Source: a virus
DNA: 27,057 bases
UHGV virus genome: UHGV-2044750
Strand: one strand, 5' to 3'
Position 1 is the stretch's first letter. Each line of letters starts with the position of its first letter. The notes under the pieces were generated by a model. The model worked only from the letters and a program-made list of their open reading frames with translations. It was not told the origin of the DNA and did not search any database. Below are positions 1,803-23,759 of this stretch, piece after piece. Made by a program: the position numbers and the translations under genes.

Positions 1803-2162
1803 ATGCGTATAGAGTTTGTTTTGCTTTACCCGCCGACGGTGAACACCTACTGGCGACGTCGTGGCAGCACATATTTTGTATCAAAAGCCGGTGAGCGTTA
1901 TCGCCGGGATGTGGCACTTATTGTTCGCCAGCAGCGGCTGAAATTAAACCTGTCCGGAAGGCTGGCGATAAAGATTATTGCCGAGCCACCGGATAAGCGC
2001 CGCCGTGACCTGGACAATATTCTGAAAGCGCCGCTGGATGCGCTGACGCATGCGGGGGTGCTAATGGACGATGAGCAGTTTGATGAAATCAATATTGTAC
2101 GTGGTCAGCCAGTATCTGGTGGACGGCTGGGTGTGAAGATTTACAAAATTGAGAGTGAGTGA
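1803..2162 (+). CDS. rusA: Crossover junction endodeoxyribonuclease RusA (Holliday junction resolvase)
   Basis: 119 aa; motifs YPPTVNTYWRR and DKRRRDLDNILKAPLDAL match the RusA family; AAGAGG SD 6 nt upstream of ATG. Confidence 0.9.
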   Translation: MRIEFVLLYPPTVNTYWRRRGSTYFVSKAGERYRRDVALIVRQQRLKLNLSGRLAIKIIAEPPDKRRRDLDNILKAPLDALTHAGVLMDDEQFDEINIVRGQPVSGGRLGVKIYKIESE

Positions 2163-2170
2163 GCGTAAAT

Positions 2171-2701
2171 ATGATATATCCGGAAATTACAGGCAAAAGC
2201 GGCGAACATTTACGCCTGAACACGCTGGAAGCAGTCTGGATCCAGGGGAAATTACGGATGTGGGGGCGGTGGTCGTATATCGGTGGGGGTAAATCCGGAA
2301 ATATGTTTAACCGGTTACTGGTTTCGAAAAAGCTGACGAAAACAGCAGTTAATGAGGTTTTACGCAGCATGAAGAAATCCGGGCTGGAAAAACCGGAACT
2401 TGAGGCATTTTTTCGGGATATGACCAGAGGGAAGCAGAAGAGCTGGTTGTCACATTGTACAGACACAGAGGCGTTGATTATTGATCGCGTTATCAGTGAG
2501 GTGCTTGGGGAATATCCCGGGCTAATCAATATTCTCCGGCAAAGGTACGAAGGACGGGGAATGAGTAAGAGAAAAATGGCAGAATGTTTAAATCGTACTC
2601 ACCCGGAATGGTGTTTCAGCACATGTGAGAAACGTATTGCAGGTTGGTTAGCCGTGGCTGAACACATGCTTTATGTACCTATGCACGATTCATTTCGATA
2701 A
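2171..2701 (+). CDS. Q: Late-gene antitermination protein Q (Q-like)
   Basis: Position directly after rusA and before a terminator, as for Q in lambdoid phages; Cys/His-containing C-terminal region. Family assignment is from synteny plus weak recognition. GTG 2159 is an alternative start. Confidence 0.55.
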   Translation: MIYPEITGKSGEHLRLNTLEAVWIQGKLRMWGRWSYIGGGKSGNMFNRLLVSKKLTKTAVNEVLRSMKKSGLEKPELEAFFRDMTRGKQKSWLSHCTDTEALIIDRVISEVLGEYPGLINILRQRYEGRGMSKRKMAECLNRTHPEWCFSTCEKRIAGWLAVAEHMLYVPMHDSFR

Positions 2702-3290: not shown

Positions 3291-4340
3291 ATGCTTAATA
3301 CTGTAAAAATATCCAGTTGTGAGTTAATCAACGCCGACTGCCTGGAATTTATGCGGTCGTTACCCGAAAATTCTGTTGACCTGATAGTCACGGACCCGCC
3401 GTACTTCAAAGTGAAACCCGAGGGCTGGGATAACCAGTGGGCGGGTGATGAAGATTACCTGAAGTGGCTGGACCAGTGTCTTGCGCAGTTCTGGCGGGTG
3501 CTGAAACCTGCCGGAAGTCTTTACCTGTTCTGTGGCCATCGTCTGGCATCTGACACCGAAATCATGATGCGTGAGCGGTTTAACGTGCTGAACCATATCA
3601 TCTGGGCAAAGCCGTCCGGACGCTGGAACGGGTGCAACAAGGAAAGCCTGCGGGCGTATTTCCCCGCCACAGAGCGCATTCTGTTCGCAGAGCATTATCA
3701 GGGGCCGTATCGTCCGAAAGATGCCGGGTATGAGGCGAAGGGTAGGGCACTGAAACAGCATGTGATGGCCCCGCTGATTGCTTACTTTCGTGATGCGCGC
3801 GCTGTCCTGGGGATAACGGCAAAACAGATTGCAGATGCCACAGGAAAGAAAAACATGGTGTCGCACTGGTTCAGTGCCGGTCAGTGGCAGCTGCCGAACG
3901 AAAGCGATTATCTGAAATTACAGGCACTGTTTGCCCGGGTGGCAGAAGAGAAGCATCAGCGGGGTGAACTGGAAAAGCCCCACCACCAGCTGGTGGATAC
4001 GTATGCCTCTCTGAACCGACAGTATGCGGAGCTGCAGAGTGAATATAAGCATCTGCGGCGGTATTTTGGTGTGACGGCGCAGGTGCCGTACACGGATGTG
4101 TGGACACATAAACCGGTGCAGTTCTATCCCGGGAAACATCCGTGCGAAAAACCGGCAGAAATGCTGCAGCAGATAATCAGCGCAAGCAGTCGTCCGGGTG
4201 ACCTGGTTGCAGATTTTTTTATGGGCTCAGGTTCAACGGTAAAAGCGGCACTGGCGCTCGGGCGTCGTGCAATTGGCGTTGAGCTGGAGACTGAACGTTT
4301 TGAGCAGACAGTCAGGGAAGTTCAGGATTTAATCGTTTGA
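3291..4340 (+). CDS. DNA methyltransferase, beta-class (N6-adenine or N4-cytosine), orphan (no adjacent restriction gene)
   Basis: DPPY catalytic motif near the N-terminus (LIVTDPPYF) and AdoMet-binding motif near the C-terminus (DLVADFFMGSGST), i.e. beta-class motif order; 349 aa. Confidence 0.9.
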   Translation: MLNTVKISSCELINADCLEFMRSLPENSVDLIVTDPPYFKVKPEGWDNQWAGDEDYLKWLDQCLAQFWRVLKPAGSLYLFCGHRLASDTEIMMRERFNVLNHIIWAKPSGRWNGCNKESLRAYFPATERILFAEHYQGPYRPKDAGYEAKGRALKQHVMAPLIAYFRDARAVLGITAKQIADATGKKNMVSHWFSAGQWQLPNESDYLKLQALFARVAEEKHQRGELEKPHHQLVDTYASLNRQYAELQSEYKHLRRYFGVTAQVPYTDVWTHKPVQFYPGKHPCEKPAEMLQQIISASSRPGDLVADFFMGSGSTVKAALALGRRAIGVELETERFEQTVREVQDLIV

Positions 4341-4389: not shown

Positions 4390-4465
4390 GGCCCTTTAGC
4401 TCAGTGGTGAGAGCGAGCGACTCATAATCGCCAGGTCGCTGGTTCAAATCCAGCAAGGGCCACCA
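4390..4465 (+). tRNA. ileZ: tRNA-Ile (anticodon CAU, lysidine-type AUA reader)
   Basis: Cloverleaf folded by hand: 7-bp acceptor stem GGCCCTT/AAGGGCC, anticodon loop CTCATAA, T-loop TTCAAAT, 3' CCA encoded; closely resembles E. coli tRNA-Ile2. Symbol from the Stx-phage ileZ-argN-argO trio. Confidence 0.85.
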
Positions 4466-4472
4466 TCACATA

Positions 4473-4549
4473 CCGCCATTAGCTCATCAGGAAAGAGCGC
4501 CAGCTTTCGAAGCTGGTTGCGCGGAGTTCGGGTCCCCGAAGGCGGTCCA
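4473..4549 (+). tRNA. argN: tRNA-Arg (anticodon UCG) with one mismatch each in acceptor and T stems
   Basis: Anticodon stem CCAGC/GCTGG with loop TTTCGAA; acceptor CCGCCAT/AAGGCGG has an A-A mispair; T-stem has an A-C mispair; CCA encoded. Symbol is tentative, by order in the trio. Confidence 0.65.
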
Positions 4550-4562
4550 TTATCTGTATCCT

Positions 4563-4639
4563 GCGTTGTTAGCTCAGCCGGACAGAGCAATTGCCTTCTA
4601 AGCAATCGGTCACTGGTTCGAATCCAGTACAACGCGCCA
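4563..4639 (+). tRNA. argO: tRNA-Arg (anticodon UCU, reads AGA)
   Basis: Perfect acceptor stem GCGTTGT/ACAACGC, anticodon loop CTTCTAA, T-loop TTCGAAT, CCA encoded. Symbol is tentative, by order in the trio. Confidence 0.85.
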
Positions 4640-4654
4640 CACTTATTTTCCCTG

Positions 4655-4679
4655 GCTCGCTTTTGCGGGCTTTTTTTTT
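4655..4679 (+). terminator. Rho-independent terminator after the tRNA cluster
   Basis: 6-bp stem GCTCGC/GCGGGC (one G-U pair), TTTT loop, followed by a 9-T run. Confidence 0.55.
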
Positions 4680-4875
4680 AAATGTCTCACAATTCAGGCG
4701 GTTGACTGTTGTCTGGTTTGCGGGGAGTTTGTTAAAAGAAACTGGCATGGTGAATCCCCCTGTGCGGAGGGGCAATCAGCGAGTAGGTATATGGGATAAT
4801 CGCGGATTCAGGTGCTGGTACTGAATTCACCGGGAGGCACCCGGCACCATGCAATGGCACATAGCGCCACTCTCC

Positions 4876-4910
4876 AGCCCCTCTCCGGAGGGGCTGTTTA
4901 TATTGATTTT
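4876..4910 (+). terminator. Rho-independent terminator
   Basis: Perfect 8-bp stem AGCCCCTC/GAGGGGCT with TCCG loop, followed by GTTTATATTGATTTT. Confidence 0.45.
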
Positions 4911-4930
4911 GTCAGATGTGAGTAAACTCC

Positions 4931-5266
4931 TTATGGACTTTGTTGTTTTAGTCCATAAGGACATATTTGCAGAGTGCAACGGTTATTAAAGCATTCATTC
5001 AATACGTTATCTGTATTTGTAGGGCATTCCTGGCTGTTTTTGATTAAATTCCAGAATGTTTTATTGAATGGTACTACGTTGTAAATGGTTACAGGTAGCA
5101 CTTTGTTATTGAGCATGATACCTGTGTGAGTCAGTGTAAATATACTTTCAGGAGGTAAGAAAGCATCCGATTGATACCAGATTATCAATTTTATTTTACT
5201 CCATATGACTGAAAAAGATATTCCGCATGATGGCTGGATAACTGTATCAATCACAATCCACTTCAT
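4931..5266 (-). CDS. Hypothetical protein (111 aa), AT-rich orphan ORF at the stx-equivalent locus
   Basis: Minus-strand ORF with AAGGAAA SD about 5-7 nt upstream of ATG; stop codon lies inside an 11-bp perfect inverted repeat (4929-4960); low GC relative to flanks; no family recognised. Confidence 0.5.
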
Positions 5267-5526
5267 TTAGTTTCCTTGTTTATGCCTTGCTGGTGATGTT
5301 CTGAAAAGTATAAATGATATTTTTGATTGTAAACCATAGAGCAGAATTATTTTTCTGATGTTGTTTATTGTTTATTTAAATGCAGGGTGGTTTATATCTC
5401 GTCTTGTAGTTTATCCATGCATATCTGCTTGATGATGAGGTTTTTATTTAAGGTATGGTTTTGTGTTTTTTCTGTATTACATGTCAGGTATTTTAAAGAA
5501 TTATTTTTCAGATGGTGGAAAGAACC

Positions 5527-7377
5527 ATGGCATTTAAACACTATGATGTTGTCAGGGCGGCGTCGCCGTCAGATCTTGCGGAAAAGCTGACACATAAACT
5601 GAAAGAAGGCTGGCAGCCGTTTGGTAGTCCGGTGGCCATAACCCCTTATACCCTGATGCAGGCGATTGCAGCAGAAGGTGATGTGGTCGTCAGTGGTGCA
5701 ACTGAGCCAGAGTGGTACTACGTCATCGTACTGGCCGGGCAATCCAATGCCATGGCTTATGGTGAAGGGCTTCCGCTTCCGGATTCATACGATGCGCCCC
5801 ATCCGCGCATTAAGCAACTGGCCCGTCGTAACACAGTGACTCCCGGTGGTGAAGTATGCGTATTTAACGACATCATTCCTGCTGACCATTGTCTGCATGA
5901 TGTTCAGGATATGAGTACGATTAACCATCCCCGGGCTGACCTGAGCAAAGGGCAGTACGGCTGTGTCGGACAGGGCTTACATATTGCCAAAAAACTGCTT
6001 CCGTATATCCCTAATAATGCGGGGATCCTGCTGGTACCATGCTGTCGTGGTGGTTCGGCATTCACCCAGGGCACGGAGGGGACATTCAGCGAGTCCACGG
6101 GGGCCAGTCAGGATTCGGCTCGCTGGGGAGTGGGTAAGCCGTTATATCAGGATCTGCTTTTCCGCACGAAGGCAGCATTGCAGAAAAACCCGAAAAACGT
6201 TTTGCTGGCGATATGCTGGATGCAGGGGGAATTCGATATGACGAATGCCAGTTACGCCCAGCAGCCAGCAGCATTTCTTGCAATGGTACAGCAGTTCCGT
6301 GCTGACTTTGCCGGGCTGGCGGCGCAGTGTCACGGTGGAAGTCCGGCATCAGTCCCCTGGATTTGTGGCGACACGACATACGCGTGGAAACAAGAACACG
6401 GTACGCAATATGAAGTGGTATATGGTGCATATAAAGGTAAAGAATCCCAGCAGATTTATTTTGTTCCCTTTATGACCGATGGTAGCGGAGTTAATACACC
6501 GACAAACAACCCGTCAGAAGATCCTGATATTGCCGGGTCTGGTTATTACGGTTCGGCATCCCGAACGAACAAAAACTGGGTATCATCAAATCGCCCGACG
6601 CATTTCAGCTCATGGGCGCGTCGTGGCATTATTCCCGATCGTATGGCAACTGCTATTCTGAACGTAGCCGGTCGCACCTTAGCCTTCATTAGTGGTAAGG
6701 CACCGGAAATCAAACCCTCGCCCGGCGGCGACACGCCATCGGGGCCGTCTGAAGATGCATCCGTACGCACAATCTCCCTGTTGCCGACAGCCGGAGATGC
6801 TGCTGCGCAGGGCTGGAGCATTAAGAATGGCGGAATTCAGTTGTCAGATGGTGTATTTAAGATCACCAAGCAGAGCAATAAAACCTGGTCCCTGATGCAT
6901 CCGGTGGATGACGCAATTACCCTGCTGACACAGGGCGGCAGACTGACCTGTAAGTTCCGCCTCTCAGGCGCACTGACCAACAATCAGTTCGGGCTGGGGA
7001 TTTATCTGTATACGGACGCTCCCGTTCCTGATGATGTGGCGATGACGGGTACTGGTAATCCGTTCCTGATGTCTTACTTCACTCAGACCACTGACGGCAG
7101 AGTGAATCTGATGCATCACAGGAAAGCCGGAAACACGAAGCTGGGGGAGTTCGGCGATTACGGTAACGACTGGCAGACGCTGGAGCTGGTGTTCACCGCC
7201 GGCAGTGCCACGGTTACTCCGAAACTGAATGGAGTGGCTGGCCCGGCATTCCAGGTTATAAAAGACAGTCTGACACTGGGACTGAATGCGCTGACGCTGA
7301 CGGATGTTACAAAAAGTGCAGCGTATGGCGTTGAGATAGAAAGTCTGGTGCTGGAGATAAATGCACCGGCAGCATAA
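5527..7377 (+). CDS. nanS: Prophage sialate O-acetylesterase, NanS-p type (DUF1737 N-domain plus SGNH/SASA esterase domain)
   Basis: N-terminus MAFKHYDVVRAASPSDLAEKL (DUF1737-like) and esterase block LAGQSNAMAYGEG (GQSN motif); about 616 aa; sits between the tRNA cluster and the lysis genes as nanS-p does in Stx-type prophages. The upstream in-frame ATG 5512 lacks an SD. Confidence 0.85.
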   Translation: MAFKHYDVVRAASPSDLAEKLTHKLKEGWQPFGSPVAITPYTLMQAIAAEGDVVVSGATEPEWYYVIVLAGQSNAMAYGEGLPLPDSYDAPHPRIKQLARRNTVTPGGEVCVFNDIIPADHCLHDVQDMSTINHPRADLSKGQYGCVGQGLHIAKKLLPYIPNNAGILLVPCCRGGSAFTQGTEGTFSESTGASQDSARWGVGKPLYQDLLFRTKAALQKNPKNVLLAICWMQGEFDMTNASYAQQPAAFLAMVQQFRADFAGLAAQCHGGSPASVPWICGDTTYAWKQEHGTQYEVVYGAYKGKESQQIYFVPFMTDGSGVNTPTNNPSEDPDIAGSGYYGSASRTNKNWVSSNRPTHFSSWARRGIIPDRMATAILNVAGRTLAFISGKAPEIKPSPGGDTPSGPSEDASVRTISLLPTAGDAAAQGWSIKNGGIQLSDGVFKITKQSNKTWSLMHPVDDAITLLTQGGRLTCKFRLSGALTNNQFGLGIYLYTDAPVPDDVAMTGTGNPFLMSYFTQTTDGRVNLMHHRKAGNTKLGEFGDYGNDWQTLELVFTAGSATVTPKLNGVAGPAFQVIKDSLTLGLNALTLTDVTKSAAYGVEIESLVLEINAPAA

Positions 7378-7670: not shown

Positions 7671-7877
7671 ATGGAAAAAATCACAACAGGTGTGTCATAC
7701 ACCACGTCAGCGGTGGGGACGGGATACTGGTTACTGCAGCTGCTGGACAAAGTCTCTCCGTCCCAGTGGGTGGCAATAGGTGTGCTGGGGAGTCTGCTGT
7801 TTGGCCTGCTGACGTATCTGACAAACCTTTATTTCAAGATTAAAGAAGATAAGCGCAAGGCTGCGAGAGGTGAATAA
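7671..7877 (+). CDS. S: Class II holin (pinholin), phage-21 S21 type
   Basis: 68 aa with two TM segments; the C-terminal part ([20 protein letters not shown]) matches my recollection of S21; GGAGA SD 10 nt upstream; stop overlaps the endolysin start (TAATG). Confidence 0.85.
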
Positions 7878-8377
7878 TGCCTCCATCATTACGAANNNNN
7901 NNNNNNNNNNNNNNNNNNNNNNNNNNNGCTGTTGCCATAGCGTCTGTGCTCATCACTGGTCCGAGTGGTGACGATGGCCTGGAAGGTGTCAGCTACATAC
8001 CATACGAAGATATCGTTGGCGTATGGACTGTATGTCACGGACACACCGGAAAAGACATCATGCCCGGTAAAACGTATACCGAAGCAGAATGCAAAGCCCT
8101 CCTGAATAAAGACCTTGCCACGGTCGCCAGACAAATAAACCCGTACATCAACGTCGATATACCGGAAACAACGCGCGGCGCTCTTTACTCGTTCGTTTAC
8201 AACGTGGGCGCTGGCAATTTCAGAACATCGACGCTTCTTCGCAAAATAAACCAGGGCGATATCAAAGGCGCATGTGATCAGCTACGGCGCTGGACATACG
8301 CTGGCGGTAAGCAATGGAAAGGGCTGATGACTCGCCGTGAGATTGAGCGTGAAGTCTGTTTGTGGGGGCAACAATGA
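7877..8377 (+). CDS. R: SAR endolysin (T4-lysozyme-like muramidase, R21 type); N-terminal SAR region partly masked by an N-run
   Basis: MPPSLR...[14 protein letters not shown] signal-anchor-release N-terminus and lysozyme core ([11 protein letters not shown]..., YNVGAGNF); 32 N at 7896-7927 are in frame. Confidence 0.85.
7896..7927. other. Run of 32 N (unresolved or masked bases) inside the endolysin gene
   Basis: Literal n characters in the sequence. Confidence 1.
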
Positions 8378-21205: not shown

Positions 21206-23759
21206 ACCGGTAGGCGATCTGGTCGTTGATTTGAGTCTGGATGAGGCCAGATTTGACGAGCAGATGGCCAGAGTCAGGCGTCATTTTTCCGGTACGGAAA
21301 GTGATGCGAAAAAAACAGCGGCAGTCGTTGAACAGTCAATGAACCGGCAGGCGCTGGCTGCACAGAAAGCGGGGATTTCCGTCGGACAGTATAAAGCCGC
21401 CATGCGTATGCTTCCTGCACAGTTCACCGACGTGGCCACGCAGCTTGCAGGCGGGCAAAGTCCGTGGCTGATCCTGCTGCAACAGGGGGGGCAGGTTAAG
21501 GACTCCTTCGGCGGGATGATCCCCATGTTCAGGGGGCTTGCCGGTGCGATCACCCTGCCGATGGTCGGGGCCACCTCGCTAGCGGTGGCGACCGGTGCGC
21601 TGGCGTATGCCTGGTATCAGGGCAACTCAACCCTGTCCGATTTCAACAAAACGCTGGTCCTTTCCGGCAATCAGTCGGGTCTGACGGCAGATCGCATGCT
21701 GGTCCTGTCCAGAGCCGGGCAGGCGGCAGGGCTGACGTTTAACCAGACCAGCGAGTCACTCAGCGCACTGGTTAAGGCGGGAGTAAGCGGTGAGGCTCAG
21801 ATTGCATCCATCAGCCAGAGTGTGGCGCGTTTCTCCTCTGCATCCGGCGTGGAGGTGGACAAGGTCGCTGAAGCCTTCGGGAAGCTGACCACAGACCCGA
21901 CGTCAGGGCTGACAGCGATGGCACGCCAGTTCCATAACGTGACGGCGGAGCAGATTGCGTATGTTGCTCAGTTGCAGCGTTCCGGCGATGAAGCCGGGGC
22001 ATTGCAGGCGGCGAACGAGGCCGCGACGAAAGGGTTTGATGACCAGACCCGCCGCCTGAAAGAGAACATGGGTACGCTGGAGACCTGGGCAGACAGGACA
22101 GTGCGGGCATTCAAATCCATGTGGGATGCGGTGCTGGATATTGGTCGTCCTGATACCGCGCAGGAGATGCTGATTAAGGCAGAGGCTGCGTTTAAGAAAG
22201 CGGACGACATCTGGAGTCTGCGCAAGGATGATTATTTTGTTAACGATGAAGCGCGGGCGCGTTACTGGGATGATCGTGAAAAGGCCCGTCTTGCGCTTGA
22301 AGCCGCGAGAAAGAAGGCTGAACAGCAGAGTCAACAGGACAAAAATGCGCAGCAGCAGAGCGATACTGAAGCGTCACGGCTGAAATATACCGAAGAGGCG
22401 CAGAAGGCTTACGAACGGCTGCAGACGCCGCTGGAGAAATATACCGCCCGTCAGGAAGAACTGAACAAGGCACTGAAGGACGGGAAAATTCTGCAGGCAG
22501 ATTACAACACGCTGATGGCGGCGGCGAAAAAGGACTATGAAGCGACGCTGAAAAAGCCGAAACAGTCCGGCGTGAAGGTGTCTGCGGGCGATCGTCAGGA
22601 AGACAGTGCTCATGCTGCCCTGCTGACGCTTCAGGCTGAACTCCGGACGCTGGAGAAGCATGCCGGAGCAAATGAGAAAATCAGCCAGCAGCGCCGGGAT
22701 TTGTGGAAGGCGGAAAATCAGTTCGCGGTACTGGAGGAGGCGGCACAACGTCGCCAGCTATCCGCACAGGAGAAATCCCTGCTGGCGCATAAAGATGAGA
22801 CGCTGGAGTACAAACGCCAGCTGGCTGCACTTGGCGATAAGGTCACGTATCAGGAGCACCTGAACGCGCTGGCGCAGCAGGCGGATAAATTCGCACAGCA
22901 GCAACGGGCAAAACGGGCCGCCATTGAGGCGAAAAACCGGGGGCTGACTGACCGGCAGGCAGCGCGGGAAGCCACGGAACAGCGTCTGAAGGAACAGTAT
23001 GGCGATAATCCGCTGGCGCTGAATAACGTCATGTCAGAGCAGAAAAAGACCTGGGCGGCTGAAGACCAGCTTCGCGGGAGCTGGATGGCAGGCCTCAAGT
23101 CCGGCTGGAGTGAGTGGGAAGAGAGCGCCACGGACAGTATGTCGCAGGTTAAAAGTGCAGCCACGCAGACCTTTGATGGTATTGCACAGAATATGGCGGC
23201 GATGCTGACCGGCAGTGAACAGAACTGGCGCAGCTTCACCCGCTCCGTGCTGTCCATGATGACAGAAATTCTGCTTAAGCAGGCAATGGTGGGGATTGTC
23301 GGGAGTATCGGCAGCGCCATTGGCGGTGCTACCGGTGGCGGCGCATCAGCGTCAGGCGGTACAGCCATTCAGGCAGCTGCGGCGAAATTCCATTTTGCGA
23401 CCGGAGGATTTACGGGAACCGGCGGCAAATATGAGCCAGCGGGGATTGTTCACCGTGGTGAGTTTGTCTTCACGAAGGAGGCAACCAGCCGGATTGGCGT
23501 GGGGAATCTCTACCGGCTGATGCGCGGCTATGCCACCGGTGGTTATGTCGGTACACCGGGCAGTCTGGCTGACAGCCGGTCGCAGGCGTCCGGGACGTTT
23601 GAGCAGAATAACCATGTGGTGATTAACAACGACGGCACGAACGGGCAGATAGGTCCGGCTGCTCTGAAGGCGGTGTATGACATGGCCCGCAAGGGTGCCC
23701 GTGATGAAATTCAGACACAGATGCGTGATGGTGGCCTGTTCTCCGGAGGTGGACGATGA
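21198..23759 (+). CDS. H: Tail tape measure protein H
   Basis: 853 aa near-identical to lambda gpH by recollection. Confidence 0.95.
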   Translation: MAEPVGDLVVDLSLDEARFDEQMARVRRHFSGTESDAKKTAAVVEQSMNRQALAAQKAGISVGQYKAAMRMLPAQFTDVATQLAGGQSPWLILLQQGGQVKDSFGGMIPMFRGLAGAITLPMVGATSLAVATGALAYAWYQGNSTLSDFNKTLVLSGNQSGLTADRMLVLSRAGQAAGLTFNQTSESLSALVKAGVSGEAQIASISQSVARFSSASGVEVDKVAEAFGKLTTDPTSGLTAMARQFHNVTAEQIAYVAQLQRSGDEAGALQAANEAATKGFDDQTRRLKENMGTLETWADRTVRAFKSMWDAVLDIGRPDTAQEMLIKAEAAFKKADDIWSLRKDDYFVNDEARARYWDDREKARLALEAARKKAEQQSQQDKNAQQQSDTEASRLKYTEEAQKAYERLQTPLEKYTARQEELNKALKDGKILQADYNTLMAAAKKDYEATLKKPKQSGVKVSAGDRQEDSAHAALLTLQAELRTLEKHAGANEKISQQRRDLWKAENQFAVLEEAAQRRQLSAQEKSLLAHKDETLEYKRQLAALGDKVTYQEHLNALAQQADKFAQQQRAKRAAIEAKNRGLTDRQAAREATEQRLKEQYGDNPLALNNVMSEQKKTWAAEDQLRGSWMAGLKSGWSEWEESATDSMSQVKSAATQTFDGIAQNMAAMLTGSEQNWRSFTRSVLSMMTEILLKQAMVGIVGSIGSAIGGATGGGASASGGTAIQAAAAKFHFATGGFTGTGGKYEPAGIVHRGEFVFTKEATSRIGVGNLYRLMRGYATGGYVGTPGSLADSRSQASGTFEQNNHVVINNDGTNGQIGPAALKAVYDMARKGARDEIQTQMRDGGLFSGGGR

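Follow-up and report, generated by a model that had tools for sequence, protein, structure and literature searches.

The window considered here, i.e., the whole stretch of 27,057 nucleotides that was analysed (UHGV virus genome UHGV-2044750), is a lambdoid prophage late region. Its 5' part carries, in this order, a DUF968/NinG-like gene, RusA, a DUF1133/Q-like antiterminator, a methylase and tRNA genes, followed by a small open reading frame in antisense orientation that is assigned to iraL below; beyond it lie an esterase gene, a P21-type holin, lysozyme, Rz/Rz1, terminase, and the head and tail genes. The antiterminator at 2159..2701 sets the direction of late transcription. All genes flanking iraL (tRNAs, esterase, holin, lysozyme, Rz) reside on the plus strand and iraL itself on the minus strand, so that the ORF had been correctly described as antisense to late transcription in an earlier, sequence-only reading of this DNA. 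The features on which the following discussion draws are:

2159..2701, plus strand: DUF1133/Q-like antiterminator (Pfam PF06576, 367 bits; PF06530 Phage_antitermQ, 35 bits)
3291-4340, in the late region of the window: DNA methylase
4390..4639, plus strand: three phage tRNA genes with the anticodons CAT, TCG and TCT (ARAGORN, Rfam)
4716..4905, plus strand: STnc100-family sRNA gene (Rfam RF02076, 132.4 bits, gathering score 47, model covered end to end)
4928..4961, minus strand: inverted repeat of 12 bp, perfectly paired, loop of 10 nt (arms 4928-4939 and 4950-4961)
4931..5266, minus strand: iraL coding sequence, ATG to TAA, 111 amino acids (from the ORF list and its translation)
5267..5299, minus strand: iraL 5' untranslated region of 33 nt, its start at A5299 placed by homology to the 5'-RACE end of CFT073
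5273..5277, minus strand: Shine-Dalgarno sequence AAGGA (read from the sequence)
5307..5333, minus strand: iraL sigma-70 promoter (-35 TTTACA at 5333-5328, 15-nt spacer, -10 TATACT at 5312-5307)
5512..7377, plus strand: sialate O-acetylesterase of the NanS-p type, DUF1737/SASA/DUF6645 (Pfam; RefSeq annotation of near-identical loci)

The cargo zone that follows the Q-like antiterminator opens with the tRNA trio; the same trio is found in the potB prophage of CFT073 and upstream of stx2 in an O157 phage. The first of these genes (4390-4465) was called tRNA-Met (CAT) by ARAGORN, whereas RefSeq lists the homologous gene as tRNA-Ile; presumably it is of the lysidine-modified ileX/ileZ type, typical of the tRNA clusters of Stx phages. 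A separate terminator-like hairpin follows the tRNAs at 4654-4671. The esterase gene, part of the late operon, flanks iraL on the side away from the sRNA. Further downstream, a masked stretch of 32 N (7896-7927) falls within the phage lysozyme gene at 7877-8377.

The basic description of the ORF given in the sequence-only reading stood up well. A minus-strand frame of 111 codons is present from ATG to TAA, its good Shine-Dalgarno sequence is represented by AGGA at 5276-5273, 6 nt 5' of the ATG, its AT bias is evident from a GC content of 34.5% in the coding sequence versus 53.3% in the entire window, and the protein indeed contains cysteine, with five residues at C14, C81, C92, C97 and C102. 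The gene is surrounded by an AT-rich island of 25-38% GC that extends from approximately 4900 to 5500.

What did not survive was the view of an orphan ORF of no recognised family. The ORF is almost certainly iraL, a paralog, carried by prophages, of the anti-adaptor gene iraM of E. coli. Its translation is 100% identical (111/111 amino acids) to IraL of the uropathogenic E. coli strain CFT073, WP_000871291.1, the gene of which sits in the prophage adjoining potC and potD (the potB prophage). The coding sequence agrees with CFT073 iraL at 334 of 336 nucleotides, the two changes being synonymous, and solely synonymous changes separate the window copy from the genes of both CFT073 and E2348/69. 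Membership of the iraL clade has been set at 95% identity or more to CFT073 iraL across the full coding sequence (PMC4045071), and the window copy falls within this clade; towards K-12 iraM, identity drops to 71% at the nucleotide and 62% at the protein level. In keeping with this assignment, the NCBIfam model NF007393, "anti-adapter protein IraM", was matched at 162 bits (curated cutoff 121), with residues 1-110 aligning to positions 1-113 of the 114 in the model, and a phmmer search matched residues 1-78 to the N-terminal domain of IraM in PDB 8TWD_A (E=9e-32). By megablast, an 801-bp locus is 99.8% identical in many complete E. coli genomes, and RefSeq labels the protein "anti-adapter protein IraM" in thousands of genomes. 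BLAST and structure prediction, recommended earlier as checks, thus led to CFT073 IraL by identity and to 8TWD_A as the best PDB match of the model.

Other resources contributed less. With hmmscan against Pfam, neither IraL nor K-12 IraM matched a family at E values up to 10, while precomputed tables assign PF11183 to 19 of 20 homologs; we ascribe the mismatch to differing thresholds or library versions and do not count it against membership. The one PHROGs match is phrog_4407, annotated as "unknown function". PDB sequence matches to Kti11/Dph3 zinc-finger proteins (E 0.26-0.9) were dismissed as chance.

In this way, a curated family model and one BLAST search immediately sufficed to identify a small ORF that had passed for an orphan. 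The gene was already known: iraL, formerly ycgW, with the locus name c1429 in CFT073, was found in a screen for sigma-S regulators (Hryckowian et al. 2014, mBio, PMC4045071). IraL raises both the level and the stability of sigma-S in log phase (PMC4045071); the interaction with RssB was documented by a two-hybrid signal and by co-purification, and sigma-S was followed by immunoblot and stability assay in CFT073 (PMC4045071). As the gene has thus been characterised experimentally, its recognition here adds nothing new to that story.

With regard to expression, the promoter candidate proposed earlier proved sound, with both hexamers present at a position that fits the published 5'-RACE start (PMC4045071); a generic promoter scan restricted to spacers of 16-18 nt missed it, the iraL spacer being 15 nt long, a suboptimal length. 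The 5' end mapped by 5'-RACE for the CFT073 gene, which encodes the identical protein, reads ACATCACCAGCAAGGCATAAACAAGGAAACCA (PMC4045071), and 31 of its 32 bases match the window from 5299 downward. Measured from this inferred start, the -10 hexamer occupies positions -13 to -8, leaving a near-canonical distance of 7 nt, and the 33-nt leader that results for the window agrees with the complementing clone of CFT073 iraL, which ended at +33, immediately 5' of the ATG (PMC4045071). Both promoter hexamers are the same in the window, CFT073 and E2348/69, and the identity of the upstream region to CFT073 iraL is well over the 96% used as criterion in PMC4045071. Three regulatory SNPs distinguish the window from CFT073, located at the spacer base directly following the -35 hexamer, at -1, and at +31 beside the Shine-Dalgarno sequence; all three are also found in E2348/69, and hence represent a common allele.

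In a lysogen carrying the gene for the identical protein, iraL is transcribed during exponential growth (PMC4045071). Transcriptomes of CFT073 contain iraL mRNA, the level of which goes up when fur is mutated and upon a shift to 37 °C. Because of the rise in the fur mutant, the promoter was compared by eye with the Fur-box consensus, and at most about 9 of 19 positions matched. A search for PhoP boxes (pattern KGTTTA-N5-KGTTTA) returned a direct repeat with one mismatch, TGTTTATTGTTTATTTA, at 5362-5378 on the plus strand, 63-79 nt upstream of the iraL start. Across the window there are eight matches with up to two mismatches, which is not above the shuffled expectation (mean 4.5), and the site at 5362-5378 lies in a region of 25% GC; it could be a chance match and is taken as a lead only.

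At the 3' end of the gene, the inverted repeat spans the last iraL codons and the TAA stop codon at 4933-4931. It had been described as perfect, 11 bp long and covering the stop; its perfection and position were confirmed, while the length had to be revised to 12 bp. As RNA, the hairpin at 4928-4961 has a calculated energy of -17.5 kcal/mol, and an equally long repeat appeared in just 7 of 5000 mononucleotide shuffles of the surrounding 500 nt. The repeat probably represents a 3' stem-loop of the iraL mRNA. Only three U residues follow it, and the terminator scan found no canonical intrinsic terminator 3' of iraL on its own strand. According to the locus alignment, the repeat is specific for the IraL lineage, as the paralog of Stx2c phages lacks the right arm, which in iraL is supplied by a 28-nt insertion. 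Relative to the same paralog, the ancestral stop codon reads CAA in iraL, adding QQSP, the four-residue C-terminal extension by which the protein also differs from IraM.

The STnc100-family sRNA gene converges on iraL, its terminator ending 26 nt from the iraL stop codon. The 3' end of the sRNA consists of a GC-rich hairpin (4875-4896), followed by TTTATATTGATTTT; the scan returned no other strong intrinsic terminator in the vicinity of iraL, and this one acts on the strand opposite to that gene. The sRNA stretch of the window contains the two qPCR primers that PMC12370729 lists for STnc_100. In STEC, STnc_100 is located 75 nt downstream of stx2B (PMC12370729), and the same STnc100 element lies between stx2B and an IraM paralog in Stx2 phages. 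A 2026 preprint described STnc100 and PasD as related prophage sRNAs, often near an esterase gene, and the window sRNA may be related to PasD of EPEC; an identity with PasD2 of EPEC was considered.

The placement of iraL at the stx-equivalent position, as put forward in the sequence-only reading, calls for some refinement: iraL does lie in the cargo zone, which is bounded by the tRNAs and the esterase, but it adjoins the stx slot instead of occupying it. In the Stx2c and Stx2a phages of O157:H7, the order is tRNAs, stx2A, stx2B, STnc100 sRNA, an iraM-like gene in antisense orientation, and esterase. In the alignment of the window with the Stx2c locus, homology runs from the start of the esterase over the anti-adaptor gene and approximately 250 nt beyond, and ends at the 3' flank of stx2B. 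Given the co-occurrence of the 75% identical paralog with stx2AB in O157:H7 phages, the iraL slot adjoins the stx slot and can coexist with stx; in this window the stx slot is empty. The paralog in question, WP_001303568.1, is encoded by phages 2851, 1717, Stx2a_WGPS and others, and by tblastn it is 72-74% identical in 41 Stx2-converting phages. Its orientation is that of iraL, and so is its slot, with the STnc100 terminator on one side and the esterase gene on the other. On the other hand, it lies beside stx2AB, lacks both the 12-bp repeat and the C-terminal extension, and has a diverged upstream region. A literature search on IraM or IraL in connection with prophages, Stx2 or RpoS brought up no functional study of this Stx2-phage paralog, which is unannotated in most of the deposited phage records. 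Thus, iraL is a classic piece of lambdoid-phage cargo adjoining the stx slot, and the as yet uncharacterised paralog of the Stx2 phages has been left unannotated in many phage records.

Among the known systems, the closest is that of CFT073, which has the identical protein, the same promoter hexamers and the same Shine-Dalgarno sequence. The gene order is shared as well, with an antiterminator, three tRNAs, the STnc100 region, antisense iraL, DUF1737/esterase, holin and lysozyme. There are, however, differences. The antiterminator of the window is of a different type (DUF1133), the esterase gene is intact whereas the CFT073 copy is truncated, and the interval between the last tRNA-Arg and the sRNA (4640-4715) is shorter by approximately 620 bp, as judged from the coordinates. 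A DUF3927 ORF is annotated in CFT073, E2348/69 and DCE7; the window leaves no room for it.

In terms of distribution, blastn returned 1415 E. coli records with a best match of at least 95% identity to the iraL coding sequence, equivalent to about one quarter of the 5426 complete E. coli genomes, and most of the remaining genomes carry iraM, at approximately 71% identity to iraL. A protein-database search with IraL retrieved Escherichia entries only, with every named one being IraM. Among deposited phage genomes, IraL is present at 98% identity in four records, that of vB_EcoS-640R1 and three related ones; in vB_EcoS-640R1, the gene order is Q, tRNA, antisense anti-adapter gene, DUF1737, holin, lysozyme, Rz and Bor. 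The same collection contains one weak match, a Salmonella phage fragment with 34.7% identity to IraL. Nei-Gojobori dN/dS values of 0.10-0.12 versus the Stx2c-phage paralog and 0.16-0.17 versus K-12 iraM, with synonymous sites near saturation in these paralog comparisons, bear out the conservation as a coding gene that had been named earlier as a check.

An AlphaFold2 model of IraL, computed with 16 homologs, consists of a seven-stranded barrel and one helix; its pLDDT values lie at 75-85 over residues 1-76 and fall below 50 in residues 77-111. The top PDB match of this model in Foldseek was 8TWD_A, i.e., IraM in the IraM-RssB complex (E=2.5e-7, target-normalised TM 0.67), followed by 2JSO (prob 1.00), deposited as "Antimicrobial resistance protein". 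We take 2JSO to be PmrD. With 8TWD_A and then 2JSO as its matches, the model reproduces the PmrD-like fold that has been reported for IraM (PMC10844676), and by homology to the crystal structure of IraM with RssB, the N-terminal 78 residues of IraL would adopt a beta-barrel of this PmrD-like type. Three clusters of IraM contacts with RssB were defined in that structure (PMC10844676). Cluster I, which faces the alpha4-beta5-alpha5 surface of the RssB receiver domain and comprises I4, I6, W22, K26 and I42, is identical in IraL at five of five positions. Cluster II, in contact with the C-terminal domain of RssB, retains three of five residues (T13S and L75I in IraL), and cluster III, in contact with the segmented helical linker, two of four (H63N and I64V). 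[quoted passage not shown]

The C-terminal tail forms a second conserved element. Residues C81, P82, C92, C97, I101, C102, P103, Y104 and G105 are kept in 15 of 15 aligned family members, among which C14 is often replaced by serine. In IraL, the invariant tail (residues 81-111, window 4931-5026, minus strand) reads C81-P-x9-C92-x4-C97-x4-C102-P-Y-G, and across the family the pattern is C-x(9-10)-C-x(4-5)-C-x4-CPYG. In IraM, the tail was removed as proteolytically unstable and was called less conserved and flexible (PMC10844676). As far as can be judged from the alignment, the four invariant cysteines point to a metal site or to disulfide bonds, and the tail could be a metal- or redox-sensing module that controls the stability of the anti-adaptor.

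[quoted passage not shown] It differs in its promoter region and in its chromosomal context next to icd; furthermore, iraM is induced via PhoPQ at low Mg2+, in contrast to the log-phase expression of iraL. While IraM contacts both domains of RssB, IraL has been reported on the N-terminal domain only (PMC4045071), and the two proteins are distinguished at the contact sites by H63N, I64V, T13S and L75I, in addition to the QQSP extension. The iraM gene has been described as "on the e14 prophage" (PMC4045071); in the K-12 derivative KLY it is the immediate neighbour of icd, no e14 genes intervening, and is hence placed outside the excisable e14 element. Upstream of iraM, ycgX (DUF1398) has prophage homologs, e.g., ydfO in the CFT073 prophage, which hints at the iraM locus being the remnant of an old prophage. 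PmrD has in common with IraL the small beta-barrel fold (2JSO) and the binding to the receiver domain of a response regulator, yet the identity is 16%, the target is a different one (PmrA), and the cysteine-rich C-terminal tail is missing. The structure 4HN7 has been named as E. coli PmrD (PMC10844676). RssC of Salmonella represents a further member of the same anti-adaptor family, with 49% identity at the gene level (PMC4045071).

Taken as a locus, iraL represents an AT-rich, self-contained moron, equipped with a sigma-70 promoter of its own and a leader of 33 nt, that lies between an STnc100-family sRNA gene and nanS-p. The moron features include its own promoter, a deviant GC content, a position between conserved phage genes, and occurrence in sequenced phages; the proposal of an independently transcribed, convergent cargo gene is thereby upheld, given a promoter of its own and a start placed by homology to that of CFT073, head-on to the late operon. 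The identical protein of CFT073 targets the adaptor RssB, to whose N-terminal receiver domain it binds (PMC4045071). With IraL bound, RssB cannot pass the stress sigma factor sigma-S (RpoS) on to ClpXP, and sigma-S accumulates in log phase without added stress (PMC4045071). By homology with IraM, the barrel of IraL would occlude the alpha4-beta5-alpha5 face of the RssB receiver domain. Most likely, IraL seated on the receiver face that RssB uses for sigma-S would keep sigma-S from ClpXP. For the window copy, RssB binding and sigma-S stabilisation are predicted from the identical CFT073 protein.

An intact copy might nevertheless be silent or irrelevant in this lysogen, either silenced by H-NS or weakened by SNPs, with no measurable effect on sigma-S. 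The three promoter and leader SNPs versus CFT073 would be compatible with such a situation, as would the very AT-rich island, which is typical of xenogeneic silencing, and there is a precedent of sorts in JJ1886, the second copy of which carries a -35 mutation and was left undecided with respect to expression in PMC4045071. Since the promoter hexamers and the Shine-Dalgarno sequence are the same as in CFT073, the allele occurs in E2348/69 as well, and the substitutions in the coding sequence are synonymous only, we regard a silent copy as improbable. Still less probable is a PmrD-like connector that acts mainly on another response regulator or a phage target, its effect on RssB being secondary. 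[quoted passage not shown]

The sequence-only reading had left a choice between a lysogenic-conversion and a defence gene, of which the former, in the sense of a conversion-type moron, remains. Moron positions with their own promoter are frequent sites of defence and conversion genes, and a role as anti-phage defence or toxin gene could be considered on these grounds; yet no defence-protein model of PADLOC matched IraL even at E=1, PHROG 4407 carries no defence annotation, and the protein is identical to a characterised anti-adaptor, so that we attach very little weight to this reading. A chance ORF or non-coding sequence, for which the small size and nothing else would speak, has a negligible probability in view of dN/dS values of 0.10-0.17 across the paralogs with synonymous sites near saturation, the matches to a curated family and to a crystal structure, and the published experiments at the protein level. 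The interpretation as iraL, encoding an anti-adaptor directed against RssB, is therefore retained.

Beyond the action of IraL on RssB, it is conceivable, though we consider it rather doubtful, that the local arrangement acts as a switch coupling the stabilisation of sigma-S to the state of the prophage. Because iraL lacks a canonical terminator and is convergent with the sRNA, read-through past its stem-loop would be antisense to the STnc100-family sRNA. Conversely, and speculatively, upon induction the Q-antiterminated late transcription might continue through the sRNA terminator and traverse iraL in antisense direction, and the anti-adaptor would be shut off in the induced prophage. Equally speculative, the 12-bp stem-loop and, next to it, the terminator hairpin of the convergent sRNA would probably define or protect the 3' end of the mRNA.

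Finally, a minor annotation in the sRNA gene deserves mention. RefSeq lists a pseudogene of 126 nt ("hypothetical protein, incomplete") at approximately 4735-4860 on the minus strand, antisense inside the STnc100 gene. Its 42-residue ORF had no match in Pfam, and the pseudogene is probably an annotation artefact. The same pseudogene annotation is found in the CFT073 locus (23270-23395 of its segment) and in another related locus (6036-6161).
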